In this document: one piece after another, positions 1,705 to 58,230 of the stretch
How the letters are laid out: every line of letters begins with the position of its first letter
Position numbering within the stretch: position 1 is the stretch's first letter
From: Eledone cirrhosa
Taxonomy: Eukaryota
NCBI GenBank assembly: GCA_964016885.1
Contig: OZ024752.1
Location: 29,016,001 to 29,080,000 of the forward strand
Direction: 5' to 3'
Length of the DNA stretch: 64,000 bases
Translations under genes and position numbers: made by a program
Notes under the pieces: model-generated
Seen by the model: only the letters and a program-made list of their open reading frames with translations
Databases searched by the model: none
Told to the model about the DNA's origin: nothing

Positions 1705-15797
<14,093 letters not shown>

Positions 15798-20876: not shown

Positions 20877-21275
20877 TATAATCCACAAACATGACTTTGT
20901 TAAAATCTTATCCCAGGGGTTATGATATAATTGATATGGAATGTAGATTCGATATAATATGAAATAGTTTCGCTCGACTGATTCAGTCAGTAGTCAAATT
21001 CTCTGAACAAGTGTTTTAACTGAGTATATGACGAAACTTCAGTTAAAAGTACTACGCTAGTAAGTTACATAATTTATTTCACGCTACATAACTCAACTGA
21101 ATGTTAAGTCAATCATTATACGCTAAATGTGGTTGTGTGTGTGTGTATATATACACACACACATATATATTTAAGCAAAAGGGATATTCAATTTGTTGGT
21201 AATTCAACAAATATAAATGTTTATAACTGATTCAAAGCACTTCTGGTTATGTCAATATTTATAAAACAAACTTAG

Positions 21276-21336
21276 TATTTTATCTGATGAGTGCGTACCG
21301 AAGTTTTGGTACCCTTGAAATATATATAATAGAATA
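21276..21336 (+). ncRNA. Type I hammerhead ribozyme motif
   Basis: tattttat-CTGATGA-stem II-GAAA-tatata-TA-atagaata; 8-bp stem I, palindromic stem III. Confidence 0.8.
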
Positions 21337-21577
21337 AATATGGTTTTATAAATATAGTTTCCATTTATTTAATATCATTGTATATATATAACAATAAGTA
21401 GGATCGAAGTCACTGTTGCAGCATATGTACAATCGTTTTAATATCTAACACATACACACATAACTCTTTAAAATTTACACTCAAGGCTTGTTTAACTTAT
21501 ATAACCAACTGGTTTTATGTTACACAATGCAAAAGAATTATCAGTCATTATACGCAAGATGTGTTTGTGTGTGCATA

Positions 21578-24005
21578 TCTATTATATAAATGTGAAATGG
21601 GCGAAAATTGTCTGATACAGGCAAAAGGGTAGTACCAATGCTCTGATTGTCATGAAAATGTACACCTTAATAGGTGCCGAGGAAGCGACAGGTCTACTTG
21701 GGGTCCTCTAAATTGAAAAATGTGGTCTCCCCAAAAACGGTCTTTTTCTATCGATTTTACCTCTCTATAGTTTCTTAGCTTTACTCTCTCCGTCGCTCTT
21801 TCCTCTCTTTATGATAGATCATTTTCCCCTCTCTATAATTTAACTGCTTTACTCTCTCTGTCGCTCTTCACTCCCTATATGACAACACTGCAGAGAGAGA
21901 TACAAATTAAAGTGTTAGATATTCAGAAAAGGACCATCACACTTTAGTTAACTTTCAGTAACGTGTTATATAACTTTGATCTGTCGTCGCTCACATAGCA
22001 CACATACATACACACGATACTTATATAAGCTGAGCGTCGCGTGATGTGTGTGTGTATGTATCCTTCACACCTCCCTATACTATTTAACCTAAAATACTTT
22101 TATATCCATCTCTTAGTGAAGCATTTTCAACTCATTATACGTAAACAATGACATTAATTTTTCAACTTTTCGATGGCCACATTTGTTCCAGTTACAGGGA
22201 CGCGTGCGTGAAGCGCGGGCTACTCGAGGATGATGCCCACCTGAACGTGGCGTTGACAGAGGCTGCTGAATGTAAGATGCCTCGAGAAATGAGACGTGCT
22301 ATTGTTCTGCGGCATAGGTGAGCCCCTTAAGCTTTGGGAAACGCATAAAGGCAACATGTCAGAGGACATCCTCCGTAGACTACAAGCAGAAGATCCAGCG
22401 GCTGGCTTTGCTTTCAACGACGCGGTGTTCAATGAGGCCCTCATCGACATGGACAACCATCTTAAAGCTCTTGGTGCATCTGATTTCGGTTTGCCACAAC
22501 CTCGAAACACTCACAGTGCTTTAGATGTGGAGTTCATACGTGAGTTAAATTACAACATCGACGATATGACACATCAGGTAGCTCAGGACGAACCCAGACT
22601 TTTGCATGACCAGAGACGGGCATATGACAGAATTCTCTCCAGTGTCAATTCAAATGAGGGACGGCTATTTTTCCTGGATGTTCCTGGCGGAACAGGAAAA
22701 ACTTTTCTCATCAACCTTTTGCTTGCGAAGCTACGAAAAGACAAGCGGATTGCTTTAGCGGTCGCCTCCAGTGGTATTGCGGCGACACTGTTACATGGCG
22801 GTTGTACGGCACACTCCGCATTCAAATTGCCTTTGGACATTGCAAAGAAGGAGAATCCTACATGTAGAATAGATCGTGGCGACCCTAAAGCACATCTTTC
22901 TGAGTGCTGCCTGATCATATGGGTTGAGGTTACCATGAGTAACAAGGCGGCCTTTGAGGCTCTGGATCGAACTCTCAAGGACTTGTGAGAGAGGAGAGTA
23001 AGAAACAGAGAGGCAAAGTGAACGCTGTGTTGGATACACTATGTATATGTGTCAGTGTAGAGACGTGTGTGTGTGTGTGATGTGTGTGGAAATAAGAGGG
23101 GAAGGAAAGCAATAACTATTAACATGTGTGCGTGTGTATGTACGTGCGCGTATGTTTGTGTGTGTGCATGCGTGCAGCGTTCCACAGAAAGTAAAAACTA
23201 TCAACATGTGTGAGCGTGTGTGTAAGTGTACGGGTGCGTGTGTAAGTTTGTGTGCGTCGCTTCTGATTGCCGTGGTAATACAACCTCATCATATGCTGAT
23301 TCTGGCAAAAAGGTTGGATCCTATGGCTGGCCAGGGCTAGAGTAATATTGAAAAACGATTCTATTTTCAAAGTAGAAGGATCCGCTATTTGGAGTTCAAA
23401 CCAGGCCACCTCCCCGAGTTGAACTCTAGGCAATATTGACTGTCTATTACTCAGTGGCTAAGAGACTGGAAATTACTGAATAAATTTTTGTGTCATATAA
23501 TTTGTTGTTTTATTATTATAGCTGACCACTTATAGATAAGCATGTTATCCATATCCATATTAATTTGGCATTTGTATAAACCATTTCAAGTAAATAGGGA
23601 CCTTTTTACATTGACGGACATCTTTTATATTAATTATCTATATCTATATCTACATATAATATAAAAGATTGGAACTTCCATCATCCTTTTGAGAAACGTA
23701 GAACAACCACGTCTCTGCAATGATACACGTTTTACAGCCAGGCAGAAGATGAACCATCTCCTAGAGGTCACTATTCTAGGGGGGGGGGGGGGGAGCACCT
23801 AGAATTGTTCATATACTATGCACAAACGGTACGACGAAGAATCTGGTATATCTGGAAGATTTTTTTTACTGTTTTTTTGTATCACACAGACACCACGGAC
23901 TCGCCTCATACTGTAACCAGTCAAACATCCAATACAGTCATTTTCTCTTTTACCTGTCTTCTCTTATCATCTGTTTACCCGGGCGAAGCTGGGTACGTCA
24001 GCTAG
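21578..24005 (+). mobile_element. Helitron (deleted; possibly two nested elements, second 5' end ~23649)
   Basis: A|TCTATTATATAAA 5' end, Pif1 helicase fragment, 3' GC hairpin plus CTAG|T at 23978-24006. Confidence 0.75.
22196..22988 (+). pseudogene. Helitron RepHel Pif1-like helicase fragment
   Basis: FFLDVPGGTGKTFL, VASSGIAATLL, TAHSAFKLP motifs; truncated and frameshifted. Confidence 0.9.
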
Positions 24006-25487: not shown

Positions 25488-26428
25488 ATAATTGTTTCTA
25501 CTATTGGCACAAGGCCAGCAATTATCCAGTGCATTACTGGTACTTTTAAAAATAATTGTTTCTACTATTGGCACAAGGCCAGAAAATTACCCAGTACATT
25601 ACTGGTACTTTATTTTATCGACCCCGTAAGGATGAAAGGCAAAGTTAACCTCGGCGGGATTTGAACTCAGAATGGCAAGGGCCGTAACTCTATGCGTCAA
25701 AGCATGGCGTCCGAACCTCTACCGATACTGCCAACCCACCGGTACTTTTAAAAATAATAATGGGATATAACAAACCAGGAAATAACACGTAGAACCGGAT
25801 TCAAAAAATATGTTACACGGTGTAACCTACCAACCGCGTGATGTGGTAGATTACATAACATAAAACTAGTTATATAAACGCTAGACTTTAAACTTCGCAT
25901 ACACAATTGAAAAGACTTGTCATAGAATTAAAATATTGATTTCTAATTTAGGCAAAAGGCCAACAATGTTTTTTTTTGGTGTGTGTAGTACACACTGTGT
26001 ACGTGGGGGGAGGGAGGGAAATCTGATTATATCTACCCTAATACTTGACTGGTATTTTATTTTATGGGCCCCGGAAGGATGAAAGGCAAAGTTAACCTTG
26101 GCGAGATTTAAACTCAGAACAAATACAATTACATTTGGCAGAATCGGTAGATCGTCAGACACCATGCTCTGCAGCATAGAGTTATGGCCCTTTATGTTCT
26201 GAGTTCAAATCCTGCAAAGGTTAGCTTTGCCTTCCATCCTTACGGGGTCGATCGATAAAATAAAGTACCAGTAATGCACTGGGGTAATTGCTGGCTTTGT
26301 GCCCAAAGTAGAAACAATTATTATCCGAGGTTAACTTGCCTTTCATCCTTACGGGGTCGATGAAATAAAGCACCAGTAATGCACTGAGGTAATTGCTGGC
26401 CTTGTGTCAAAAGTAGAAACAATTATTA
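25488..26428. mobile_element. Cluster of family A tRNA-SINEs (two minus-strand copies, one plus-strand copy with duplicated core/tail)
   Basis: Head TGGCAG..TCGG / GAGTTCAAATCC boxes, core gcctttcatccttacggggtcgataaaataaagtaccag, tail ccttgtgcc..aagtagaaacaattatt. Confidence 0.85.
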
Positions 26429-27903: not shown

Positions 27904-28375
27904 AACACACACACATATATATATATATAAAGACACTTGTGAGCAAGATGTGTAAACAACATATACTTCAAATAATAATTGTTTCTACTTTAGGCACAAG
28001 GCCAGCAATTACTGGTACTTCAAATAATAATACTTCAAATAATAATACAACACACTCGTTTGGTTTGGATTAGTTTTCGCTTCTGTATATTTTGTATCCC
28101 TATAGTTAACTTAGCTGGCCATCAATATTTATCATCGATTAGCCTAAGATATAAATATATGTATATAGTCTATCAAATTTCTTTTATATATATATATATA
28201 TATATATATCTATATATATATATATATATGTGTGTGTGTTTATCCCGAGTACAATCGGGGGAAACCACAGTAAGGTACTCAATACATAGCAGAGTATAAA
28301 TATTTAATATAGAAATGGCATATTATATATATATATATATATATATATACGCAAACTTTCTCTCATTCCCACTCT

Positions 28376-28446
<71 letters not shown>

Positions 28447-28829
28447 CTCTTATATAATATATATATATATATATATTCACTCTTATATAATATATATATT
28501 ATATAAGAGTGGAAATGAGAGAAAGTTTGCGTGTATGTATACATACACACACAAATGTGAAATGTCAAATATGTGATTTTTTGAATAAAAAAAAGTACTA
28601 TAGGGAATTTTGTTTTCATCTAGAGTACATATTTTTCTTTGAAATATGTGCTTTGTATATATACAATATATTGTATATTCTCTTGGATATATGGATTTTT
28701 CTCTCTCTATATATATACATATATTTTTACTTTTGAATTATTCAGTAATGTAATCACTCTGTAATTGTAAACATCTTGTATCACTATCATTCAGGTTTTG
28801 ATTTTACTGACGTCTTGCCCATGTGTTTT

Positions 28830-31252
28830 TTTTTTTTTTACACAAACTCACAAACTCACAATTTCGGTTTTTACTGCGAACTATTACGCAAACTCACAGC
28901 CTTAGATTAGATTTTGTATTTCTAGCGTTTTTATTTTCCTTCTCTTTGCACGTTCAGTGCTCTTTCTCTCCCACTGTATTTACCTGTTTCTCGCAGACCA
29001 TACTCCTCTTCACGCATTCATAATCTTCTCACCCCTTCTCCACTTTCTAACCCTCCCCTTGCTCACCCCTTACTTCGTCCTCGCGCACAGCCCACCTAGG
29101 TATTCGTTCAACCCGACGGTGGCCCGATGTTTTGACCGAACTATCACCGGCGATTGCCAATTGCTAAAGTTGCCACCACTTTAACCCAGTCCACTTTAGG
29201 TGGCGGTGGCATGCGTCGAACGACCAAGAGACCTGCTTGGTGGAACGACTATGTGACAAACGGTCAGCCTTCGACCTCTTATTCTCCACCAACTGCGGCA
29301 TGCACGAGAGGAGCTAACTTTCCCCCACCTACCCTTCTTCCTCTTCACGGCAGATTCCGAACGAATCCAACCCAGCCAACCACACTACAACTGTTAGCTC
29401 ACCACCCAACCTCCGCTTTAGTCCCACCGTTAGAACCACTGCTGTTTCCTTTACTGACTCACTCCCTCCACCGAATTTCAACGCTGGCCCTCTACTGCCG
29501 GCTGCTGCCAGCCCACCACCTGATTGCGCTCTCTGTGCCTGCACTAGCCGGTACTTAAAGACAATTAAATGTCACCTATGCCACGCATGCTACCACAGAA
29601 GCTGTGTCGGCATCACCAAAGCTCAAGCCAAAAGGCTTCAACACTGGACCTGTAATCGGTGCCACTTCAGCTCCGACGTATTCCGTGAGGATGCCCCACA
29701 CTTTGATGACCAACTCTCTACCGACAACTTTGCCACAACCCCCCAGGGCTTCTCCAAATCAAAGCTCGTTAACCGGATCTCTAAGGGAGCTCGGAATAGC
29801 TTTGCATGTACCCTCTCTAATTTACTGAAAAAAGTTTGCTCGTCCAACAATAGGTCTGAATGGCAGAAATTGTTTTTGTTTCTCCTCATCTCTCTTCACG
29901 TGCACAATGGGAACTCGGGTTCCCTCACGTCCTCTCTCAAGCAGCAGTTCCAGCTGTTTGAGTCCACCCCAACCACGTCTTATCTCAGTTCGACACCGAG
30001 CTCGGTGTCCACCAACAGACAACCCGTAGATCTCAAGCGAGCGGTCAATGCCAAATTCAACGAATTTGACATTAAAGGGGCTGTCCGTCTCCTCTCTTCT
30101 CTATTTTCCCTTGCTCCGTGTAACTCTGATTCTCTTGAGTGTCTGAAAGAGAAGCACCCATTGGCACCCCCCAGATGATCAGCTACACTGGCCTGAACCA
30201 CCAGAATACATGAGACCGGTTTACACCACCGATATCATCAGAAAGGCGATTTCATCCTTCCCCGCTGGGTCAGGCGCGGGAATTGACAGCCTTCGTCCTC
30301 AACACCTCAAGGATGGTATCTCCTTATTGGCCGGTGACGCCGGACTCGAGCTCCTGGAGAGTCTGACTCAGTTTGTGAATCAGTTTTCTTCAGTGAACGT
30401 TCTCCCGTTCATTCGCCCACTGTTCTTCGGTGCGAAGCTATTTGGTCTCACCAAGCCAAACGGGGACCTGCGCCCCATGGCTGCACTTCTCGCCGTCTCA
30501 CTGCAAAGGCATGTTTGTTGTTGGTCTCCGACTCACTGGCGGAGGAATTTTCCCCCATCCAGCTAGGGGTGGGTACCAGGTTGGGATGTGAGGCTGCTGT
30601 CCACGCTGCCAGAGCATTTGCCAACTTGCCCTCCTCATCCCCCAAGGTCATCCTCAAACTTGACCTCAGGAATGCCTTCAACTTCGTCAGCCGCGCCATC
30701 GTCCTCGGCTCAGTAAGAGAGAGGGGCCCGCACTGTTTGCACTGGGCATTGATGACATCACCAAGATGGGGGCTGAGTTGGACCTCAATGTCTGGTACCT
30801 CAGACGAAGTCAGAGAGCTTGGACAGCATAAGTTCGAAGGCCACCTTCGACTCCCTCTTCGTCCAGTCAGATCAGTTTGCAAGGTGCCGCTTACTATCTG
30901 CCAGCGTCAAATACTCAGGCGATTGGGTCGATGCCCTACCTGTGGCCAACGTTGGTGGCCTACTCACCTGGACGAACTTCGTGTCCCCATCGCCCTCAGA
31001 GTGGGAGCCGGCGTCTGCATGGGCTTGAGGTGCCGATGCGGCAAACTCCTCGACTCTACAGGCCTCCATGGTCTTGCCGCCTGAATGCCGGCCGCTTCGC
31101 ACGTCACACGGAGCTAAACCTCATTCTGAAGAGAGCTTTGGCCTGGGAGAATATCCCCTCAGTTTTGGAACCATCTGGGTTGTCCAGAAGTGACGGCAAA
31201 AGACCTGACGGTCTTACCCTGTGCCCCTGGTTGAGAGGCAGGTTATGTGCAT
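28830..31252 (+). mobile_element. CRE-like non-LTR retrotransposon (PHD, RT, restriction-like endonuclease), internally deleted
   Basis: PHD C4HC3 at 29522-29662; SFPAGSGAGIDSLRPQHLK, QLGVG...GCEAAVHAAR, LKLDLRNAFN; RHTELN...[21 protein letters not shown]. Confidence 0.8.
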
Positions 31253-31254
31253 AA

Positions 31255-31762: not shown

Positions 31763-32439
31763 TCAATAATAATATCAAATAATGATACACCACAAATCAA
31801 ACAAAGGTGAGATTTGTTTATCCGTCATGTACGGAAGCAATACTTAAAGGGATGATATCTCTCTCTCTCTCTCTTTGACCCCCCCCCCCCAAAAAAAAAG
31901 ATGCCTTGATACTTCATATAGCTTGTATTGAGGGACAATATCTTTATCAGTTGTCTACTGGATATATCTGTTAGACATGCAGTGACTAACAACAGAATGT
32001 TTTAAGTCTGCGTGTCTGACATTCATGCGTAGCTTGTGAATAAAAAATTCAAGGGGTATCGCTGGCCGTGGTTATCCCTCCCAAACATCTTTTGTAATGT
32101 ATCGTCTTATTGGCTAATTTCATCGTCTTATTGGCTAATCAACCAACGAGAGTAATTGTTGCTCATTTGCGCATTTTTCAGGTCTAGTCAATAATCTTCG
32201 GCAACTGCCTATATTATAAAGAACTTGTTTTAACGGTTTGTAATTCATTCATTCATTCATTTGCTTATATATATATGTATATATATATATTGTTATACTT
32301 TGGGAGGGTCATGTTGCCAATAAGAAACACACGCACCAGTTGCTTTCACTTCAATTTATTATAATAAATTTATAATAAATTTATAAATTTATAAATTTCT
32401 GGTTGGTTGGTTCCACAACCAGATAGTTGTTTATATATT

Positions 32440-32482
32440 GTCATAGTTCTTTCGTCACACACTCTGTGACCTCTTCAGTGAC
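32440..32482 (-). ncRNA. Minimal hammerhead ribozyme motif (left arm)
   Basis: Reverse complement of 32703-32745. Confidence 0.6.
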
Positions 32483-32702
32483 TGGGGATTCCTTTCTTTG
32501 TTTCAACACACAACACACACACACACACAGAACAAACAACCAACCAGTAACATGTAAATAAACAAATAAATAAATGAACATAAACACACACAGACACCCG
32601 GATGTGGCGCATGCGCAGACTGAGCACACAACACACACACAGAAACAAAATGGCGTAGGACAGAACAAAGGAGAGGCACAGAAACAAAGAAAGGAATCCC
32701 CA

Positions 32703-32745
32703 GTCACTGAAGAGGTCACAGAGTGTGTGACGAAAGAACTATGAC
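32703..32745 (+). ncRNA. Minimal type I hammerhead ribozyme motif (right arm)
   Basis: gtca-CTGAAGA-G-gtcaca/tgtgac-GAAA-gaac-TA-tgac. Confidence 0.65.
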
Positions 32746-33474
32746 AATATATAAACAACTATCTGGTTGTGGAACCAACCAACCAACCAGAAATTTATAA
32801 ATTTATAAATTTATTATAAATTTATTATAATAAATTGAAGTGAAAGCAACTGGTGCGTGTGTTTCTTATTGGCAACATGACCCTCCCAAAGTATAACAAT
32901 ATCAGTTTCAACACACGATTTCAGATAAAGAATCTTGCTAAACAAATTCAGAAACGATATATATATATATAAATATAGCGGTATATATATATATATATAA
33001 ATATAGCGGTTTTAAATTCTGCATCGTTTATGTCTGGTTGTGTTTCATTTTCTCTTTTTCATTTTCTCTTTTTTTCTCTCTATATAACGGCTATTTTCTC
33101 TCTTAACTACATACATCTCTCTTTACATTAATACTAGAGCTAAATAATTAAATAAATAAATAAATAAATGTATCAACCGATACTCAACTTCCTAGTTTCT
33201 CTATCTATCTCTATCTATCTCTTTCTTTTTTCCTCTCTCTATATATATATTTCTCTCTGTTTCTTTACATGAAGTTCTTCTCTTTATCTATCTTTCTATA
33301 TCTCTCTATTTAGTCACATGCATTTCTTCTTTTTCTTCGTTTCTCTTTCTTTCTCTCTTTATCTCTTTCTTTTTACAACTGTCCACAATATTTTTTACTG
33401 CCAAATCAACCTCCCAAATGCAAGGTGATTGAAAGGTATGTCCTATCTATTTATTTATAAGACTGTTTATATTG

Positions 33475-33540
33475 TATTTTGTCTGAAGAAGGCATAACAT
33501 ATTGTTAATGTGATATCCCTGAAATATATATAACGAAATA
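33475..33540 (+). ncRNA. Type I hammerhead ribozyme motif
   Basis: tattttgt-CTGAAGA-stem II-GAAA-tatata-TA-acgaaata; compensatory stem I change versus the 21276 copy. Confidence 0.82.
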
Positions 33541-33670
33541 AATATGGTTTTATAAATATAGTTTCCATTTATTTAATATCATAAATATACTCCAAATACT
33601 TGTTGAGTGCTTTTATATCAGTTATAAATATTTACTCGTTGTTAACCCAACAATTTAAATATAACTTTCC

Positions 33671-33726
<56 letters not shown>

Positions 33727-33810
33727 GTATATGTATATGTATATATATATGTGTATATGTATATGTATATGTATATATATGTGTATGTATATGTATATAT
33801 ATGTGCCCTA

Positions 33811-35648
33811 GATAGGAGTAACTATAGAGGCATTAAATTAATCGACCAGGTCATGAAGGTCACGGAAAAAGTAATAGCGCAACTAATCAGAGAGAGAATT
33901 GACCTAGATGAAATGCAGTTCGGGTTTGTGTCAGGCAAAAGTACCACAGACGCTCTTTTCATAGTACGACAACTACAGGAGAAGTACCTAGCTAAAGGTA
34001 AACCCCTCTACTTAGCTTTTGTCGACTTGGAGAAAGCCTTCGACAGAGTCCCCCGCTCCATTATCTGGTGGGCTCTTAGAAAACTAGGCGTTGACGAATG
34101 GCTTGTGAGGGCTATACAAGCCATGTATAAAGAAACAGTCAGCAAAGTTAGAATTAACAACGAATATAGTGAAGAGTTTAGCGTAAAAGTTGGCGTCCAT
34201 CAGGGCTCTGTTCTCAGCCCCCTACTATTTATTATTGCCCTTCAGGCTATAACAGAGGAGTTCAAGACAGGCTGCCCATGGGAACTCCTATACGCAGACG
34301 ACCTGACACTCATAGCGGAATCAATGGCCGAGCTAGAGAAGAAATTCCAAACATGGAAGCACGGCCTAGAGTCAAAAGGACTTAAAATTAACCTGGCTAA
34401 GACCAAAGTACTAGTTTGTAGGAAAGAAAACAAGGCGGCGGTCCCTTCTGGGAAATGGTCGTGCTCGGTGTGTAGAAACTCGGTGTGTAGAAACTCCATT
34501 TTATGTCCTAAATGCAAAGTATGGGTGCATAAAAGATGTAGTGGGATCACAGGTAAGCTAACTAAGAACATAGATTTTACATGTGGCCGGTGTTCTGGTG
34601 CAATAAGTAGCAGCAAGTGCCCACAAAATACTAGCTCTTTCAATTGCGCAGAGGGTTCTATAGAAATAGTGGACAGCTTCCGTTACCTGGGCGATAAAAT
34701 CAGCAGTGGGGGAGGGTGCTCTGAGAGTACTGTAGCTAGAGTCAGAACTGGTTGGAAAAAGTTCAGAGAGCTTATACCACTATTAGCTGCTAAAGGGTTC
34801 TCCCTAAAAATGAAAGGCAGGTTGTACGATGCCTGCATACGAACAGCAATGCTGCATGGCAGTGAGACCTGGGCATTGTGTGCAGAGGATATACGCAGAC
34901 TAGAGAGGAACGAAGCTTGCATGCTCCGCTGGATGTGTAACAGTAATATACGTGAACGGCAAAGCATAAACGAACTAAGGAAAAAATTAGAGATAAGAGG
35001 GATCAGATGTTGTTTACTCGAGAGAAGGCTACGTTGGTATGGACACGTGATGCGCATGAAAGTCGATAGCTGTATAACAAAGTGCAGGGCAATAAAGATA
35101 GACGGTAGTCACGGAATAGGCAGACCTAGAAAAACCTGGGACGAGCTGATAAACTCCGACATCACACACTTACACCTCTCCAAGACAATGTCACTGGACC
35201 GAGACCTTTGGCGGTACTCAGTAACAGAGAAGACCCGCCTTACCTAAATATATAGTAAAACCTACTCCAGCCAGTAGGCATCTCTAACAAAATACACCCC
35301 GTCCCACCACCCCCACCCCCACCCCATCCACACCACCCCGTTCTATGTAAAGTTATGTTGGTGCCGCGCCATCGAGGCTGAAACAAATGAGATCGTGTAG
35401 GTGTCACGACAAAAAAACACACAGTCCACGCTGTAATGTGGCCATGTAGGCAACACGGTAAAAAACCTCCCAGACCCACACTGTAAATGTGGTTGGTGTT
35501 AGGAAGGGCATCCAACTGTAGAAAACCTGCCAGACAGTCCTATGCGAGCAAGACAATCACTCTTGCCTCAAGTGGGACTACCCCCGTCCAAACCCATGCA
35601 AGCGTGGAACACGGACGTTAAACGTTGATGATGATGATGATGATGATG
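33811..35648 (+). mobile_element. RTE-clade LINE, 5'-truncated, with intact RT-PHD-C-terminal ORF (to 35247), 3'UTR and (GAT)n tail
   Basis: NYRGIKL, QFGF, FVDLEKAFDRV, GVHQGSVLSPLLF, LYADD, YLG, RLRWYGHV; tail ggacgttaaacgttgatgatgat. Confidence 0.93.
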
Positions 35649-36895: not shown

Positions 36896-36904
36896 ATATA
36901 TAAG

Positions 36905-38290
36905 AACAAAAGATGGTTAAAAGAGTTCCATGTATTTTATTATGCGCATTTCAAAAACAAATATCATCATGCAATAATATTTGTGTTTTCATCAGATAAA
37001 ACAGGAGGACATGATATGAAGGCTAAAAAACACTTGTGGATAGTTCAGTTTTAAATCAACATATGAAAAGTAGTTTTAGATTGATGTGTGATGTTGGGAA
37101 AAATATTTTATTTTGAGGGGGGTGGGGGGTGGAAAGGATGAAAAAGAGGAGGAGATGAGAGTAAAAAGTGGAGAGGGAGGAGTATAATGAGGAAGGATGA
37201 GATAGGAGGAGAGATGGGTGATAGAGAGAGAGAGATAGCTTTTATAACTGAGAAAAATATATTGTTTTACATAGAGAGGTTGAAAAACCGTTGGAAGATA
37301 ATGTATAAATTAAAAGAATTTGAAAATTAACGAAGAGAAAGATAATGTAAAGTTAAGGTTTGTATATTGAAGGGTTTAATAATATGTGCGATGAAAAGAA
37401 AATGTTAATATGTATTAAGAATAATATTTAAGGGTTTAATAATATGTGCGATGGAAAGAAAATGTTGATATGTATTATTAAAAAGAACAACAAGTAATTT
37501 AAGTAAGGATATATTGTGAGATGAGCATGAATAAGTTAGATGAAAGGGAGAAAAAAATAATGAATTGAGGATGAATAATCTAACGTCAAGAATATGTTTA
37601 TGTTTACGAAGGATTTTTACAAGGTGATATAGAGTAAGAATGTATTGTATTATGTAATAATTGTTTCTATGTTAGGCAACAGTGAGAAAAGGTACAGATT
37701 AGAGGTTAGACATTAAAAGAAAAAGACAAGAAAGTGAAGTGATAAATAGGAGTGATATAGAATGAGTAACAAGTATTATATAATGTATAATAAATAACTT
37801 TGAAATAAGGTAGAAAGATGGGTATATTTTTAAAGAAGTATATATATATATATGTGCCTTTGAGAAAAAGATTCTAAATTGATAAAGTTTTGGATATTAG
37901 CTGTATACTTTGTGGAATGTTTTGTGGAATTTATGCAAGCAGATAGAAAACAAGTCAGTGCGTCTATTTATTATAGAATCTAAATTAGATATAATGGTAA
38001 ATTTTTCATTTAGACGGAGATTGCAAATCTTGGATAGAGAACTGTTCAAGTATGGAGACGCAGAAGAAACCTTCTTCCAAAATATGCTATATTTAATATT
38101 TTTGTCTTTCAAGGACCATATGAGTTCTGAGAGAGCCGTGTTGGTTCTTTTAAGTTTGTATTTAAAAGACGAATGATGGTTATAAAGACGAGCTTTAAAG
38201 GAGGTGGAAGTGGAGCCAAAATAGGTGAAGGAATTGGTGTCAGTTATAACTTTACATTTATAAATTAAGTTTTTATCAAGACAATGGTAC
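36905..38290 (-). mobile_element. Penelope-like element 3' part: GIY-YIG endonuclease, pyrimidine-rich 3'UTR, terminal hammerhead
   Basis: ORF 37897-38292 LIYKC...YFGSTSTSFKARLYNH...ICNLRLNEKFTII. Confidence 0.82.
36933..37003 (-). ncRNA. Type I hammerhead ribozyme motif
   Basis: tgttttat-CTGATGA-aaac-acaaatat...atatttgt-tttt-GAAA-tgcgca-TA-ataaaata; stem III ATGCGCAT is a perfect palindrome. Confidence 0.85.
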
Positions 38291-38329
38291 ATGTATATAT
38301 ATATATATATGTATATATATATGTATAAG

Positions 38330-38537
38330 AATATGGAAGTTGAAGGACCCCATAGCCAGTGACAAATTTAAAAGCTTATTACTTGATGCCTTTGACAATA
38401 AGAAAGACGTGCAATATAGAGGAACAGTGGCAATTCTTGAAAGTGAACCTGCTGAAAGCAACGTATGAAATCTGTGGCTGGAGCAGACCTATTGGCATGA
38501 GGAGAATAACTTGGTGGTGGAACAGTAAGGTGGAAGA
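38330..38537 (+). mobile_element. RTE ORF fragment (endonuclease-RT linker)
   Basis: IEEQWQFLKVNLLKATYEICGWSR...TWWWNSKVEE. Confidence 0.7.
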
Positions 38538-40575
38538 GACCTCTTCAGTGACTGGGGATTCTTTTCTTCGTTTTGTGCCTCTCCTTTGTTCTGTCCTACG
38601 CCATCTTGTTTTTGTGTGTGTTGTGTGCTTAGTTTGCGCATGTGTTACATCCGGGTGTCTGTGTGTGTTTTTATTTGTTTATTTATTTGTTTATTTACAT
38701 GTTACTGGTTGGTTGTTTGTTCTATGTGTGTGTGTTTTCATTTTGTCCTTAATTGTAAGTTGTGATGTTGCTATTCCATTCATGTTTTCTATTTCATTTT
38801 GTCCTTAATTGTAAGTTGTCATGTTGCTATTCCATTCATGTTTTCTATTTAATTTTGGAGTTCATTTATGTTTACTGCCTCTGTGATTTGTCTAAACATT
38901 GCGTCTTTTCAGTGTGTAGATTCTATTTTTATTTCTATGTTCTCTAATTTGCCCTTATGTTCTATTTTAGCATGTTGGTAGAGTACAGATGATTCTTTAC
39001 TATCTTGAAGGTCTCGCCAGTGTTCATTTATCCGTTCCCCTACACTACGAGCTGTCTCACCTATGTACACTATATTCTTATCTTTACATTGTCCTTCAGT
39101 ACATCTTATGCTATATATTACATTTCTAGTTTTTACAGTTAATATGGAGGCTTAGTTTACAGATTATGCATTTCTTATCTATACAGGGAGGTCTTTGAAA
39201 AGGGTATGTATTACTAATAAGTGTTTTTATGGCGGTACCTGGTCTTTCTACTATCTTAATATTAAGTTTAAGTTTATCTAGGGCCCTTCTAAATTTGTAA
39301 GCTAATTCACCTCTAGGGGTTGTATTGATGAACATTACACTCTGGTATTTATTGCTATCATACCATGAGTTTATTCTATTAACCTTATTCCTAGTTCTTT
39401 CTATTCTATTCCCAAATTTGCTCCTATACAAGGAGCAGGTCCCATTTGTACCATTATTTACCATTTTTTCCCATTTGGTTCTGGCTCCTCTATATACTCT
39501 GATTTTATCTCTTTGATTGTAACCAGAGAACTGCATACGGTGGATGAAGTGTTGTATGTGTCTCTCTAGTTCTTTGGGGTTGCACATGCGGGACACGTTT
39601 CTCATCACCTGTACCAAATCCGCAATCAGTATGTTGATATTGGTGTGATCCGAAACAGCTGAGTTTCAGTGGATCAGATATTTAGAAGTCATGGGTTTGG
39701 CATAATGGAAATGGAGGATTTGTTTTTTGTTATTAATGGTATCTAACCATAGCTCTGTGTCTAGTACAGATAATTAATGGTTGGGGTGTTTGCTTGGGTA
39801 GTCTATAGTAACTCTAATATTCTGGTGGATGGAGTTAGCTATTTGCTGGATGCTTTCCATGGTGTTTTTCTCTAATTCCTGACTGTTCTCTAGTGGGGGT
39901 GTTTTTACTACGATGTTTATATCATCAACGTAGCGGGAGTACATTATCAGGGTTAAGAGGTTGCTATCTTCTAATTGTTCTTTAAGTTTAAGTTTAATTT
40001 CCCACCATACCATGAATAGGTTAGCTATGTCACCTGCAATGTTAACACCAATGGTTGCTCCCTCCTCTTAGGCATATGTTTTTTCATTAAATTTGAACAT
40101 ATGTTCCTTAAGGGTTAGTTTTATACTGGCCCCCACCGCATGTGCAATCATTTTCTTTAGTTCATTGTGGTTTTCGGGGCTCCATATGGCTCTGGTCCAC
40201 CCGTTCCATCTTTCTGTGTGGGTTTTCTTGGCCATTGAGGTAATGGTAGGCGGTCTGCCTCTTGCTGGTCTTGTAGGGCACAGGTTGCTAAGGTCATACG
40301 TATCTAGATAATCATTACTATAGGTAACTTTAAGTAGGAGTCCCAGCTCACTGGTATCAATCCCACGGAATTCAACGTTGCTCTCACTGATCATTTCTAA
40401 GCATTTCTCCACAGCAAAATCCACATCAATGGATGGATATAGGAGCACAACATCCATACTACCTATTATACAGTCTGTCAGGTCCCTAGATCAGTTATTT
40501 TCGCTGATTCTGCTGAGGAGGTCCTCCGTGCTGTCACATATATCTGGGGACATTTCAATGATGGGGCGTATGATA
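38538..40575 (-). mobile_element. Penelope-like element (RT plus GIY-YIG, degenerate) with 3' repeat broken inside its hammerhead
   Basis: SMDVVLLYPSI, SRYVDDI, VLDTELW, HFHYAKPM, VIYSIRC...YIGETARSVGERINEH; 3' end matches 32505-32717. Confidence 0.9.
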
Positions 40576-41040
40576 ATGTGGCCGTGTAGGTAACGTGGTA
40601 AAAAGTTCCCAGTCCACACTGTAAATGTGGTTGGTGTTAGGAAGGGCATCCAACCATAGAAAACCTGCCAGATAGTTCTATATGAGCAAGACACGGTCAC
40701 CCGACCAACCTTGCCTCAAATTGGGGCAACTCCGTCTAACCCATGCCAGCGTGGAAGATGGACGCTAAACGATGATGATGATGATATATATATATATATA
40801 GTAATAATAATAAATGTGAAGACTAAAATCCAAAGAGGGCTCGATAAGGATAAATATATATCAAATATATATATAAATGTGATTGGTGTTAGGAAGGGCA
40901 TCCAGCTGTAGAAAACCTGCCAGATAGTCCTCTACGATCGAGACACGGTCACCCGACCCATCTTGCCTCAAGTGGGACAATTCCCGTCTAACCCATGCTA
41001 GCGTGGAAGATAGACGTTAAACGATGATGATGATGATGAT
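40575..41040 (+). mobile_element. Two tandem RTE-tail/SINE-B 3' fragments with (GAT)n tails
   Basis: ggtgttaggaagggcatcc...gaaaacctgccaga...ggacg(c/t)taaacgatgatgat twice. Confidence 0.85.
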
Positions 41041-41558: not shown

Positions 41559-41647
41559 GTTTATTTTAGGTTTTGCCGTCTGAAGAGCTCAGGCTATCTT
41601 AACTGATAGTCCTCAGTGAAATATGTATTACGGAGTTTTAAATAAAC
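41559..41647 (+). ncRNA. Type I hammerhead ribozyme motif with extended stem I
   Basis: ccgt-CTGAAGA(41580)-gct-c-agg-ctatc/gatag-t-cct-c-agt-GAAA-tatgta-TT-acgg; distal gtttattt/aaataaac. Confidence 0.75.
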
Positions 41648-41917
41648 CCGAATCAACTGAATATGGCCTCCCGATCTTTTATTGATATATAATGCTCCAT
41701 CTTGTACCATTTATACAGGTCGTTGAGTGCTTCTTTTTATCTGCTTCACAACCGACAGACCATAATGTGGTCCACCCATCTCTGTTCGGTTAACCCCATA
41801 CTCTAATATATATATATATTATGTTAAGTATTTCCGTAGAAAAGGAAAGGAAAGAAGAGTGCTCTATGTATAGTACAAAACTATTTAATTACATGATAAA
41901 CAACACAATATAATTAT

Positions 41918-41985: not shown

Positions 41986-42447
41986 GAAAATATATTATCA
42001 TCATCATTTTGTTTGTTGTTGTGCTCATAATTGTTTTGGCATTAATACACTGGTTGGATGCCCGTCCTAACACCAGCACCACTTTAAAGCATGGACTGGG
42101 TGCTTTTATTTGTGCCACCAGCACTAGAGAGGTTGTCTTACTAAACTCAGGAGCCCTCTCCAGCCCATAGTTTGGCACAGTTTTTAATAGCTGAATGCTA
42201 CTACCATTACCTCCATTTTACAACATGGACCAGGTGCCTTTATTCGTGCCACCAGCACTAGGGAAGTTGTCTTACTGGACTTAGGGGACTGCTCCACCCC
42301 GCACCAATTTATTTGGAGTGGTAGCTCTCCTAGACTTGTTGTCTACACTATGGCTTACAGAGCCTCCATCCGCCCCGTATATATATATATATATATATAT
42401 ATATACGATATATTAACAAATGGAAACTATATTTATAAAACCATATT

Positions 42448-42512
42448 TATTTCATTATACATATTTCAAGGACACCAAGTTAAATTATGGTGTGCTTTCA
42501 TCAGATAAAATA
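42448..42512 (-). ncRNA. Type I hammerhead ribozyme motif (left arm)
   Basis: Reverse complement of 42656-42720. Confidence 0.8.
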
Positions 42513-42655
42513 TAATATAGAGCAGTTTTATAAATAAATATTGACATACCATTAAAGAATGCGACCATTTCTGTTGGAAGCTGCCGGATATGTACAGAAA
42601 TGGTCGCATTCTTTAAGGGTATGTCAATATTTATTTATAAAACTGCTCTATATTA

Positions 42656-42720
42656 TATTTTATCTGATGAAAGCACACCATAATTTAACTTGGTGTCCTT
42701 GAAATATGTATAATGAAATA
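42656..42720 (+). ncRNA. Type I hammerhead ribozyme motif (right arm)
   Basis: tattttat-CTGATGA-aag-c-acacca/tggtgt-c-ctt-GAAA-tatgta-TA-atgaaata. Confidence 0.85.
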
Positions 42721-42794
42721 AATATGGTTTTATAAATATAGTTTCCATTTGTTAATATATCGTATTTTTACTCCAATAATTTGTTGAGTGCTTT

Positions 42795-43147
<353 letters not shown>

Positions 43148-43689: not shown

Positions 43690-44810
43690 GTCATGTGGTT
43701 ACAGTCAACCTTGCTGGGTGTGTATGGTTCATATGATAGTGAGTTATTTTGGATAATAATCCTTCATCAAACTATATCATTCTGTATTATTCTTGGCTTG
43801 GCAAATCCATTACCCGTCAAAGTATGTGTATAGTTGTTTCCATGTATCCAGGTCACTCCAATGGTTTAGAGTAGGTACCACCTCCCTAATATAATGTGCC
43901 TCTGCTATTCTTAAGTAAACCGTATCTCTTCAAATATTTGTAAACCGTAGCTCTGCAAATATTTTTGTGCTTATTTTTCTTCCACATATTCCTTTGTATT
44001 GAAACTCTACATTCAGAGGCTTTGCTTTTTGAAAATGTTCAGATATTCTATTATATAGTTGGTGTTTCGTGGAATTGATGCAGTTGGCTCTGCACATGCA
44101 GTTTAGCTCAAACACTACATGGTCTTTCAGGCATATTGGTTTTGTATTGTTGTTATTAATTCCTGTAGAAGTGTATTCTCTAACAGGTCATCTCCAAAAG
44201 CAACAATCTTCTTCGATGCTCTGCATGAGGTGTTGTCTCAATGCCTTTCCACACTTTGTTACTTGCACTGGAAGGCCTGTTCTTCTGATACAGTTTCTCA
44301 GACGATTTTCTGTCTGTTCTCATTGCTATGGCAGATCAATGTAGACCCAGGTTTTATCTTTGTTCTCTCGTTACTTTCTCTGCTTCTCTTTCTTCTTGTT
44401 AGTGTTGTTGTGTCTTTCATTGTTGTTGTTGGTCTAAGAGTGGTTGTAGTTATTATTACGATTAAGGGTGGTGGTTTATGTTGGCTTGTGACTGTGACTG
44501 TGTTGGTGTTTGTGTTCTCTTATACACTCAACAACATTTCTTACAAAGTGTTGTTCATAGCCTCTCTTTAACAGCAGTTTCTGAAAGTTATTTAGGACAG
44601 ATCTTGCTTGGGTGACCTTGTCACATCTGTCCGTGCATCGTATGAGTTTGTTCATGGCCACATGGTGTTTTAGGCTTTGCAGATATGCTGAGTCTGGATG
44701 AAGTAAGACATCTCTCTTGGCTTCTTTCTCATAGAAGCTGATGTTAGCCTTTCCTGAAGCTAGGGATAGGGTAAAGTCAAGCAGACTTAGGGAACCATTG
44801 GTTCTTGGGT
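43690..44810 (-). mobile_element. Penelope-like element fragment (RT thumb plus GIY-YIG)
   Basis: GSLSLLDFTL...ISFYEKEAKRDVLLHPDS...LLKRGY; FELNCMCRANCINSTKHQLYNRISEH. Confidence 0.75.
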
Positions 44811-44834
44811 ATATATATATATACATACATATAT

Positions 44835-45055
44835 CATCATCATCATCATTTTACGTCCGCTTTTCCCTGCTTGCAAGGGTGGGACGGGAACTGATTCTGG
44901 CTTGATTTCTACAGCTGGATACCCTTCCTAACACCAACCTCATTTACAGTGAGTGCTGGATGCTTTTTTTACCGTGGCACCTCCACGACCACTTTGCAGT
45001 GGAATGATAGGGACCCCAGTCCTATCATCTCATTTCTACAGCTGAGTAAACTGGA
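44835..45055 (-). mobile_element. SINE family B 3' part
   Basis: Reverse complement of 46690-46965. Confidence 0.85.
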
Positions 45056-47015: not shown

Positions 47016-47217
47016 CTGTGGTATGAAAAATCTTTTCTCTCTGGAATTTATGTGGGATTTGTGGAATTAGATCACTAGCTGCATTTGTCAACTTATGATC
47101 AAATTTGTCATTGTGATAAACTGGCAAGTGAATCTTGCATTGGACTAACAGATAGGAAGAGAGCAGAGATGGGGTTAAGGTTGTGTACATGAGGATGCAT
47201 CGAAATTAGATAGGAAG

Positions 47218-47348
47218 TAGATAAAAAGGTTTTTCTAAGGAATTAATTTTAAAAAAGATTATATAGAGATAAATAAATAAAATAATTTAATTATTCATTT
47301 ATCATTTTACGTCCGCTTTTCCCTGATGCAAAATGATGATGATGATGA

Positions 47349-47385
<37 letters not shown>

Positions 47386-47542
47386 GATTTACCAGGCTTG
47401 CATGGGTTAGATGAACTGTCACATTGACCACAGACCATGTCATACTCATATGAATGATAAATGAATAATTAAATTATTTTATTTATTTATCTCTATATAA
47501 TCTTTTTTTAAAATTAATTCCTTAGAAAAACCTTTTTATCTA
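47218..47542. repeat. Inverted repeat, ~89-bp arms (47218-47306 / 47453-47542)
   Basis: Arms are reverse complements; spacer has SINE-tail scraps and (TA)n. Confidence 0.88.
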
Positions 47543-47581
47543 TTTATATATATATATTTTATCTATTTATATATATATATA

Positions 47582-51073: not shown

Positions 51074-51232
51074 ATATATTATTTATTTATGTTCATACAT
51101 GGAGCAAAGCACCACTTAAGGTTTCAAGGCCCAATTTTGACCACACCTCCAGAATATAAGTGTGATTAAAAGTGAGCCTTGAAACCTTGGGTAGCACTTT
51201 TGTTCCATGTATGAACATAAATAAATAATATA
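51074..51232. repeat. Diverged palindrome (~73-bp arms) containing hammerhead 3' halves
   Basis: Arms 51074-51146 / 51160-51232; gcctt-GAAA-ccttggg-TA at 51176-51193. Confidence 0.75.
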
Positions 51233-51384: not shown

Positions 51385-52820
51385 AAATGAACTATCGTCC
51401 AATCAGTCTTACTAGCTGCATTGCCAAACTGATGGAATCCTGTGTCAGAGAAACACTTTGGAACTTCTGGAAGTCTCACAGTCTTATCCGGCCCTCGCAA
51501 TTTGGATTTATCCCTAACTCCAGCTGCTGTGATCAACTTATCGAGTTTCTTGAAGACATCACCTGGATCACTGATGGCGGCTCATGGGTGGATGCTGTTT
51601 ACCTTGACTTTGCTAAAGCTTTCAATTCCGTGCCACACAAAAGACTTATGGCAAAACTCTCTGCAATGGGTGTGAAGGATCATCTTTTTAACTGATTGAA
51701 GTCCTTCATTCTCAGTCGAAGAGAGGTAGTCATGGTTCTAGGACAGGATTCCTCACCATATGAGATGTCATCTGGTGTACCACAGGGATATGTTCTTGGC
51801 CCCCTTTTGTTTGTGGCATAGATGCCAACTTAAAGAATGCCACAGTACTGAAATATGCAGATGACATCAAGCTGTACCTTGAGATAAAAAGGACAGATCC
51901 TAAACACTATAGATCTTGCCTGCAATCTGACCTGGACACAATGCAACAATGGATCACAGACTGGCAACTCAAGCTAGCTGTGGACAAGTGCACCACCATG
52001 CATTTTGGGAGTAAAAACCCAGCGTCCACATACTCCCTCCACAACACTAATATCAAGAAGTCTTCTTGTGAACGTGACCTGGGGATTACGGTCAGCAGCG
52101 ATTTGCGTTGGACGAAGCACGTCTCTAAAATTGTCAAGAAGACCGAGGGTGTCATAGCATCACTCAGCAAGACCTTTGTCAGCCGCTCTCCAGCTATCTA
52201 TTTAAAGCTGTACATAGCTATGGTGCGGCCACACTTAGAATTTGCATCACCAGTCTGGAACCCCTATCTTGCTCAGAACATTGACCGCCTGGAAACTGTT
52301 CAGAGACGTGCAACCAAGCGAATACCCTCCATCAGGCATCTACCATACTCTGAACGCCTTACTTCCCTGGGCATGGATACATTGAAGCTCCGACGTCTGG
52401 CAACTGACTTGGTAAACACCCACAAAATTATTAACCATCTTGCCAACAACAACCCTGAGTACCTTTTTGATTTCCATGTGTCTAACACACGTGGGCATGC
52501 CCAGAAAGTCAGAAAACAGCACAGTTCCCATGACTTTCGGAAACATTTTTTCACGCTCAGAGTTGCTGAAGCATGGAACAAACTACTTGCAACAGTTGTT
52601 AGCTGTCAAGACACTGCATCCTTTAAAACCTCCATGCTTCCTGAGATTCGCCGACACTACACCTAATATTCCCCCTCCATACACATACACACATGTATAT
52701 CATGACTCATACACTATTCACTTCCTTGACATTTGTATATTATTCTATGTATTATACATGCACCTTTGATGAGTTGTAGTGCACCTGAGCACTTTACACA
52801 ATAATTTCATTATTATTATT
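51385..52820 (+). mobile_element. CR1-clade LINE 3' half with (TTA)n tail
   Basis: NYRPISLTS, QFGF, YLDFAKAFNSVPH, SGVPQG, KYADD, ERDLGI, VRPHLEFASPVWNP, TRGH, FFTLRVAEAWNKL. Confidence 0.93.
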
Positions 52821-56815: not shown

Positions 56816-57382
56816 TATTCATCAGATAAATAAAATTTGACCAAACCAATCTTTTTTTTTTATATAAAACCACCTGAAACTGTTCATTGTTATCTGATAA
56901 AATGCTGTTATAATTTTATGTAAATACGGCTTTGATAAATGGTTTGACCACATGTGTGTATGTGATTGTCCTCCTTACATATGACATGTGTGTATATATA
57001 TGTGTGATTGTCTTCCTTACATACCACACGTGTGTATGTGTATATGTCCTCCGTTCATACCATGTGTGTCTATGTGTTCAGGTTAGGTTTAGAATTAAAC
57101 AACCTGGAAACAAAAAAAAAATATATATATATATATAGTTATATTTGTAGTTATATTTGGGGAAGTTCGTGTTATTATATAATTGCCAGAAATATATAAA
57201 ACACACTCACTGTATACAAAAGATTATACTTAATGATTTTGATGTTTTTGTAACTGTGTTAAAATTGTTTCTTAAAAATACTGTTTGTTTCAAATTTCTT
57301 TTTTTTTTAAATTAAACATTTTTTTTATTTACATAGTGTATGACTTGAAAAAGTGAAGAGTACTGTACTGAAGCTTACCAAT

Positions 57383-57665
57383 ATGTCAAATCTGTATAAC
57401 ATTATACTAATATCATGGAAGAACTGGACTATAGTTAAGAGAAGATATATATTATCCTTAACTGAAATTTTTTTGCCATGTATTTTCATGGCAATACTTG
57501 TGACAATTCGGAAATTTGTTAATTCAGAGAACTATGCGCATATTTCAACATGGCCGAAATGTAACATTGAAAGGCAAATTCCGTTTGTTGCTTTTACACC
57601 CAATAATTCTTTTGAAAATGAAATCATGGATTGGTTGTACCAAACACAGGGTATAAACTCTAAAG
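57383..57665 (+). CDS. First coding exon of an ABCA-subfamily lipid transporter (ABCA3-like); gene continues beyond what can be traced
   Basis: MSNLYNIILISWKNWTIVKRRYILSLTEIFLPCIFMAILVTIR matches the ABCA N-terminal WKN...R...E..P-TM1 signature; acceptor at 57335-36, donor G|GTAAGT at 57666. Confidence 0.82.
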
Positions 57666-57699
57666 GTAAGTCTTTTTCTTTTCTTCTTCACCTATTTAT

Positions 57700-58230
57700 T
57701 CATGAGAGGGATGTAGAGGCAGGGATTATTGAAACACTCATTCCAGCGGGTCCTGCCAGAAGCAACCATTTCTAACTGGTCTGGCTGGATCCCCAAGCAA
57801 GACCAGCCAAGGTCATTTATGTTATCCAATCATCTTTCTTGGTGTCTACTCTTGGGTCTCTTGTCGGTTGGTTTTGCCCGTAAAATCTGTCCAGTAATTT
57901 TTTCCTGAGACATTCTAACCGTAAAATCTATCCAGCGATTCTTTTCTGAGACATTCTAACCACATGCCCATAGTATTGGAGCTGTGGTCTCTGAATTTGG
58001 AGAAGTAGCGGCTCTACCTGGAGTGACTCTCTGATCTCCGAGCTATGCACTCTAACATTACTCCAAAGACCCTTCAGAGGAACCCCATATGTATTCGTGA
58101 TCATATTCTTTCGGTCATTACCCAAGATTCATGACCATAGGTACGGGTTGACATGAATACCAAGTTGAAGATAGCGGATTAGGCTTTTACACCTATCTCC
58201 GTTCTTCTGATTACCGAATGCTAAAGGTAG
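57700..58230 (-). mobile_element. RTE LINE 3' fragment in ABCA intron
   Basis: IRESLQVEPLLLQIQRPQLQYYGHVVRMSQKRI. Confidence 0.72.

Follow-up and report, generated by a model that had tools for sequence, protein, structure and literature searches.

The insertions left by Penelope-like elements (PLEs), a kind of retrotransposon, have a recognisable shape. In the typical layout, an inverted, 5'-truncated copy is found at the 5' end and a tail of 30–40 bp is present at one end only (PMC8557442), with the head-to-head arrangement being the most frequent and palindromes occurring at its junctions (PMC3846280). In the hammerhead ribozymes of metazoan PLEs, helix II is long and helix III is palindromic and works as a dimer, and in Schistosoma mansoni pairs of hammerheads on opposite strands lie 100–700 bp apart (PMC4209133). 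A PLE from the anole has been studied in vitro, where it nicks and extends both strands, uses uncleaved RNA and starts reverse transcription at two adjacent internal positions which define the tail, a dimer having been predicted (PMC11167929). Non-LTR retrozymes, on the other hand, occur as head-to-tail tandem repeats giving circular RNA (PMC7229834; bioRxiv 10.64898/2026.07.22.740005).

The insert described here is located near position 42 kb of a 64-kb window, the window being the whole stretch of DNA analysed; copies and elements are named by their approximate position in it. The insert is likely to be a single, heavily 5'-truncated insertion of an endonuclease-positive (EN+) PLE, in which two hammerhead-bearing pseudo-LTR copies lie head to head in (TA)n. 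Its identity as a PLE insertion is considered very probable, while the two-start priming route proposed for it below has about an even chance of being correct. It looks like a one-off integration product, as opposed to a replicating hairpin family or a retrozyme, and this octopus-type insert is most likely one more case of a PLE shape already described in other animals. A hammerhead-bearing pseudo-LTR, a head-to-head 5'-truncated copy, a 28-nt tail at one end and a (TA)14/(TA)6 microsatellite target have all been found, and the PLE origin put forward in an earlier note on this DNA is supported by the layout, the hammerhead design and the GIY-YIG and RT neighbours in the window. With Penelope/Poseidon, with Neptune and with Nematis the insert has in common the inverted, truncated 5' copy, the one-end tail, the microsatellite target and the junction palindrome (PMC8557442, PMC3846280). 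It differs from the published inserts in having no ORF between the repeats and a tail of 28 nt as against 30–40 (PMC8557442, PMC3846280), as well as in another 3' end, the third, some 60 nt beyond the tail and a TSD which is not readable within (TA)n.

Layout of the insert and its hammerhead ribozymes

The inverted repeat has been confirmed, with two arms of 172 nt each (42403–42574 and 42594–42765) and a loop of 19 nt between them (42575–42593). The earlier note had described a perfect 172-bp hairpin; the lengths of arm and loop stand and the perfection does not, as the arms are complementary at 171 of the 172 positions, the single mismatched pair being 42551/42617. The arms have a GC content of 24%, and the hairpin has an MFE of −271.1 kcal/mol (z = −40), with none of 100 shuffles equally stable. 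Two 5'-truncated pseudo-LTR pieces compose this structure. The left copy, on the minus strand, is 191 nt long (42403–42593) and combines the 172-nt arm with the 19-nt loop, has no tail and terminates at an inner 3' end. The right copy, on the plus strand, extends over 42594–42793 and combines its 172-nt arm with a native 28-nt tail (42766–42793, plus strand), found at this end only. The head-to-head junction lies at about 42593/42594, within a 6-nt palindrome, and the spacer (42575–42593, minus strand) equals the 19-nt offset between the two 5' truncation points. On the left, the presumed (TA)n target is represented by a (TA)14 run (42378–42405, no strand), the last 3 nt of which also belong to the arm end, and on the right by (TA)6 followed by a compound microsatellite (42794–43135, no strand). 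Both ends had been said to point outward into TA repeats, which holds for the left arm, directly continued by (TA)14, and needs correcting for the right arm, where the 28-nt tail precedes (TA)6. Since this tail matches 33590–33618 of the 33-kb family copy, it belongs to the element, and the insert extends over approximately 42403–42793. Two further claims have held: that of inverted 3'-terminal repeats in a (TA)n target, as seen in the arms and in (TA)14/(TA)6, and that of missing coding sequence, no ORF of at least 120 aa having been detected in the arms once the frames driven by the microsatellite, with starts at 42742 and 42780, are set aside. The outer flanks of the two arms differ and no flank is duplicated. 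Judged by the internal features of the assembled sequence, the hairpin is real.

The surroundings support the cephalopod host which had been considered and indicate that it is octopus-like. The 3' exons of DDX5 occupy 13668–15797, with the stop at 15797, and the 3' exon at 15 kb shows 87% identity to Octopus bimaculoides DDX5. On the other side, 57344–57775 is likely the first coding exon of an ABCA-type transporter, an assignment made by eye with no match in Pfam. The DDX5 and ABCA-type frames flank a repeat-rich stretch of 41 kb which contains the insert, and the insertion site is probably intergenic.

Hammerheads were sought with our own type I descriptor, scanned over the 64-kb window and 100 shuffles. 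Seven matches occur in the window, compared with a shuffle mean of 0.03 (maximum 1): two in the arms of the 42-kb insert, two in those of another hairpin at 32 kb, and one each at 33483, 41580 and 36995. An additional hammerhead at 21284, in a copy of the 42-kb family located by BLAST, was missed by the descriptor on account of a U.U at helix II pair 2. The cores in the 42-kb insert lie at 42664 (plus strand) and 42504 (minus strand). On the right (42656–42720, plus strand), the type I hammerhead was recognised by descriptor, folding and pair table, with an 8-bp helix I formed by 42656–42663 and 42713–42720, the core CUGAUGA at 42664–42670, a long helix II at 42671–42700 with a C.C mismatch at pair 4, GAAA at 42701–42704, a self-complementary 8-mer at 42704–42711 for helix III and a predicted cut after 42712 (AUA). 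The left-copy hammerhead occupies 42448–42512 on the minus strand (core 42504–42498; predicted cut after 42456). Read from the letters, the type I core CUGANGA...GAAA...UH can be recognised together with helices I and II. The earlier note had placed a hammerhead in each arm; the motif is indeed found on both strands, and because one motif in an inverted repeat necessarily appears in both arms, the two ribozymes constitute one observation and not two independent ones. Searches with Rfam gave no match at the gathering score in the whole 64-kb window, and at E<=10 the segment 42350–42850 returned 36 weak matches, microRNA-like or unrelated, with no hammerhead among them.

A pair table was assembled from five copies of the same design, at 42, 33, 21, 41 and 37 kb. 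Pairing is present in 37 of 40 cells for helix I and, when pair 4 is omitted, in 29 of 30 for helix II, counts which are partly circular, four of the five copies having been found through a descriptor that demands some pairing. The descriptor required neither a palindromic 8-mer nor a mismatch at pair 4; the 8-mer of helix III is nevertheless self-complementary in all five copies, in three different sequences, and pair 4 of helix II is C.C or C.U in all five, paired in none. The helices II bearing this mismatch are located at 42671–42700, 33490–33520, 21291–21316, 41587–41617 and 36988–36953. Several hammerhead pairs show compensatory changes on both sides among the five window copies, and a constant mismatch amid varying pairs may be the mark of a tertiary or protein contact. 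Single-arm folding (MFE, 42620–42745) additionally shows an AT-rich stem extending helix I, and in this model the pseudo-LTR would fold as one long rod around the ribozyme.

When compared to the metazoan PLE hammerheads, the type I form, the long helix II and the dimer-suited palindromic helix III are shared (PMC4209133). Helix I is longer here, with 8 bp, or about 15 including a bulge, and the 8-nt palindrome of helix III and the C.C or C.U at helix II pair 4 in five of five copies are also distinct from the hammerheads described in the accessible part of that paper (PMC4209133). In the literature searched, no report of the octopus family or of the pair-4 mismatch was encountered, a result which does not extend to Repbase, supplements and subscription papers, any of which could contain both; neither was found in the accessible part of bioRxiv 10.1101/2020.01.19.911685.

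Related copies and PLE remnants in the window

Two further members of the 42-kb family occur in the 64-kb window. The first (33429–33674, plus strand; 81% over 193 nt) consists of a single arm, which continues for about 60 nt after the tail before reaching, in (TA)n, a third 3' end. The second (21146–21397; 76%) is again head to head, with a hammerhead-bearing arm at 21245–21380 (plus strand) and an inverted piece at 21241–21170 (minus strand). The arm with the hammerhead stops close to the inner 3' point at which the left arm of the 42-kb insert also stops, and the inverted piece covers the outermost part only, so that the two arms have no overlap. Twin priming on a single RNA would be expected to give such a shape.

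A second near-perfect head-to-head pair, belonging to another PLE family, has been detected at 32287–32957. Its arms of 218 nt (32287–32504 and 32681–32902) differ only by a 4-nt indel, are separated by a spacer of 176 nt and each contain a hammerhead; an extension of about 54 nt is present on the right arm only, and (TA)n lies on either side. All three head-to-head inserts in the window have one arm which ends further in than the other, and their arms overlap by 172 nt, by 218 nt and not at all. The extension of the 32-kb right arm opens a short reading frame at 32877, the peptide of which resembles the N-terminus of P0005, a likeness suggestive at most, given that 4 of 500 shuffles equalled it and the same score was reached at an unrelated place in P0004.

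The 32-kb repeat recurs at 38538–38735 (91.5%), directly after a broken frame with RT and GIY-YIG. The two together make up a broken PLE on the minus strand (38538–40646), in which the RT and GIY-YIG frame occupies 40646–38912 and the 32-kb family's pseudo-LTR comes after it. The RT at 39–40 kb shows 60–64% identity to an Octopus vulgaris protein, and GIY-YIG was recognised by Pfam with an E of 3.3e-5. The 3' end of yet another PLE is found on the same strand at 36915–38280, where a C-terminal GIY-YIG-like frame (38280–37900) is followed by about 900 nt of UTR and by the hammerhead at 36995, of the same design as in the 42-kb insert, before the element ends in (TA)n. The frame at 37.9 kb is grouped by Atlas with GIY-YIG clusters (score 0.93), in which the family is present on 42–55% of members. 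It has 3105 relatives at E<=0.001, among them P0152, in which PLE-type RT motifs are followed by a GIY-YIG-like domain, both recognised by eye and without confirmation from Pfam. For the 37.9-kb frame itself, Pfam did not report GIY-YIG and a word search gave no match, and a weak GIY-YIG was obtained by Pfam in one of ten relatives. On the whole, the minus strand of 36900–40650 holds a nest of two broken PLEs split by other repeats, one of which cuts a hammerhead at 38538.

The 42-kb family could be tied to no coding region of its own, its link to coding PLEs being through the hammerhead design and a 20-nt match (E 0.003). No ORF was found upstream of the three copies in the window, and an alignment of the DNA upstream of the 33-kb copy with the 37-kb element's UTR scored 28, no better than shuffles (up to 35). 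A separate, solo hammerhead-bearing end is located 800 nt from the 42-kb hairpin, at 41560–41830 (hammerhead at 41580); a 10-nt motif in it (41721–41730) recurs in the tail of the 42-kb family, and its end is close to a short (TA) run. In addition, a short minus-strand frame at 44476–44850, with a tblastn E of 0.39 to P0004, weakly resembles the thumb region of PLEs and is possibly another old PLE piece.

Origin of the head-to-head arrangement

The route proposed for the 42-kb insert starts with the GIY-YIG enzyme of the element, which would nick both strands of (TA)n. Uncleaved RNA of the element would then serve as the template, each nick priming reverse transcription at one of two close starts; the tail-less copy would come from the inner start and the tailed one from the outer. 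Both cDNAs would stop early, 19 nt apart, and their 3' ends would be joined, in which case the hairpin would be a by-product and its loop a mere offset between two cDNA stops. Both copies run through the cut site, from which we infer that the template RNA was uncleaved, and the varying overlaps of the three inserts (from none to 218 nt), together with their uneven arm ends, suit two primings and agree with the pair of RT starts, the nicking of both strands, the predicted dimer and the use of uncleaved RNA reported for the anole PLE (PMC11167929). A comparable process is known from L1, where twin-priming inversions arise as two primings from both target strands yield an inverted piece. The 21-kb copy has the shape of such an inversion; enzyme and target are different, and the 172-nt overlap of the arms in the 42-kb insert would need displacement synthesis or two RNAs. 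In the anole PLE, the RT starts have no homology to the target (PMC11167929), whereas three ends here share 3–5 nt with (TA)n.

The most serious alternative, which we regard as possible and clearly behind two-start priming, accepts the same PLE insertion and derives the inversion from self-priming, the strand folding back and being copied, with the tail trimmed from one arm at resolution. Self-priming has been proposed for head-to-head PLE junctions with palindromes (PMC3846280), and a 6-nt palindrome is indeed found at this junction. The arms also look as if one had been copied from the other, being identical at 171 of 172 positions and having in common a minority allele at 42522, which makes up about 28% or less of the summed depth in public run X1; two primings on one RNA would lead to the same shared allele. 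Against self-priming, the loop belongs to the tail-less arm, which makes the copy longer than its template unless trimming is added, and copying by fold-back cannot yield the non-overlapping inverted parts of the 21-kb insert. The single difference between the arms (0.6%, 95% range 0.015–3.2%) gives weak support to a recent origin unless the arms have been homogenised, and to that extent only does the earlier note's description of the insert as young stand.

Further evidence comes from public runs, three of the 24 listed, in which contigs were aligned to 42170–42593 (4502 in X1, 642 in X4 and 14 in X5); these runs are possibly from another species and their short contigs break in repeats. Summed depth on the arm reached up to 3.3 million in X1, compared with 6–22 in the eight single contigs listed, which points to a very large 42-kb family in that run, summed depth not being a copy number. 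Depth continues from the left arm through the loop (39,931 at 42575–42589), and two diverged X1 contigs among those listed span the arm to 42582 and 42591. As depth and contigs both run from arm into loop, the loop is the left copy's own native sequence, upstream of its arm. The base of the right arm accounts, at 42551, for 402063 of 402839 in summed depth (99.8%, run X1), so that the family carries the right-arm base and the mismatch is a private change of the left arm. The pieces of left-flank contigs listed show 8–14 differences per 100–125 nt, being about 90% alike, and the TA run was passed over in the alignment; the 42-kb locus itself is seen in none of the aligned public contigs. The conserved family motif gave no matches in metagenome contigs and none in viral contigs.

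It is improbable that the insert represents the non-autonomous, PLE- or retrozyme-like unit which the earlier note had inferred, in the form of a fold-back element mobilised as a hairpin. Near-identical arms, the non-coding nature and a very abundant family would fit such an element, and non-autonomous PLE derivatives are known (PMC8557442; bioRxiv 10.64898/2026.07.22.740005). However, a search for other copies with the same fold-back junction found it in none of the seven joints listed for X1 and in none listed for X4 or X5, which counts moderately against the idea given short contigs of uncertain species. Two strand switches do occur in X1, at 42472/42518 (depth 5.8) and 42478/42568 (depth 18.7); they sit elsewhere, have low depth and are read as other private inversions, and the inversion of the 21-kb copy has yet another position. 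In the window, the hairpin has no counterpart in either of the other two copies, neither of which has the same arms and junction, and tandem repeats are absent; in other copies of the family, loop and left arm are collinear, and the full hairpin abolishes the predicted ribozyme fold. Identity with a non-LTR retrozyme was rejected, given that no head-to-tail tandem unit is present and the ribozymes lie on opposite strands. The 42-kb copies resemble non-LTR retrozymes in being short, non-coding, AT-rich, of high copy number and equipped with a type I hammerhead, and are unlike them in the head-to-head order and opposite-strand ribozymes (PMC7229834).

An assembly or library chimera produced by a fold-back read is equally improbable. 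A near-perfect palindrome next to long microsatellites, at a locus found in no public contig, is where one might be suspected, but the point at which the inversion stops is precisely a 3' end also used by the 21-kb copy, the outer flanks are different, there is a one-base difference between the arms, the layout recurs in a second family in the window with a 176-nt spacer, and it is a published one. In the least probable origin, to which we give very little credence, the inversion would be unrelated to retrotransposition, host DNA repair or replication slippage at the AT-rich (TA)n site having made an inverted duplicate of an old single insertion. The AT-rich arms (24% GC) adjoin (TA)n, and AT-rich and (TA)n DNA is prone to breakage, but the duplication comprises element sequence only and no flank, and it ends at a 3' end which the element itself defines.

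Predicted RNA and wider significance

On the reading of the insert as a one-off PLE integration product, its RNA is predicted to be inert as a ribozyme. Helices I and II have predicted pair probabilities of 0.59 and 0.99 in a single arm and of 0.0 in the full hairpin, in agreement with the earlier suggestion that long dsRNA could block self-cleavage. As the two copies are joined by their 5' ends, transcription from either side would reach the antisense arm before the sense arm, and a read-through RNA would not be expected to cleave; the palindromic helix III, needing a second sense copy, would be a further bar. If read through, the insert would give a 172-bp dsRNA, a potential substrate for ADAR or Dicer.

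Penelope inverted repeats yield siRNA in Drosophila (PMC3681739) and Penelope is heavily edited in a lizard (PMC5625713). The octopus ranks among the highest in its share of long, near-perfect dsRNA and of hyper-editing, its proportion of loci that form long dsRNA being exceptionally high, and was omitted from the repeat-level analysis (PMC5625713). By analogy, A-to-I editing or siRNA production from the insert is a reasonable idea, and as both have been documented for Penelope elsewhere, it would not be new in kind here (PMC3681739, PMC5625713). A>G and T>C differences in the public runs were considered as a sign of editing and rejected, as they are differences between genomic copies and the runs are of unknown kind.

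A wider reading, in which the head-to-head PLE ends of octopus would form a genome-wide self-folding class, generated by two-start priming in (TA)n and serving as a main source of the near-perfect long dsRNA that underlies hyper-editing, in the manner of the frog Harbinger palindromes, is regarded as unlikely. Its basis consists of three inserts, two near-perfect and one non-overlapping, in one window which was selected for one of them. If true, the varying overlaps would record in vivo how the PLE dimer primes both target strands. Taken alone, the 42-kb insert adds little, being one more PLE insertion of a described shape, and its value is as data. The three inserts with their different overlaps allow a test, made on sequence alone, between two-start priming and self-priming, a question unsettled in the PLE papers, and a census of such hairpins could test whether PLE ends supply the dsRNA of octopus.

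Other repeats have also been noted in the window. Older inverted repeats, with 70–84% identity, occur at 28336–28545, 47215–47545, 51075–51232 and 26034–26286, none of them matched by the hammerhead descriptor. A PIF1 helicase fragment (Helitron-like), two non-LTR-type RT fragments and a PHD-bearing frame are distributed over 22293–22988, 33646–35247, 51764–52666 and 29318–31254, with the PHD-bearing frame followed by pieces resembling another non-LTR element. Just to the left of the 42-kb insert, 42067–42300 contains two direct copies of 100 nt (78%) of another abundant repeat, tandem joints of which occur in public contig run X1.
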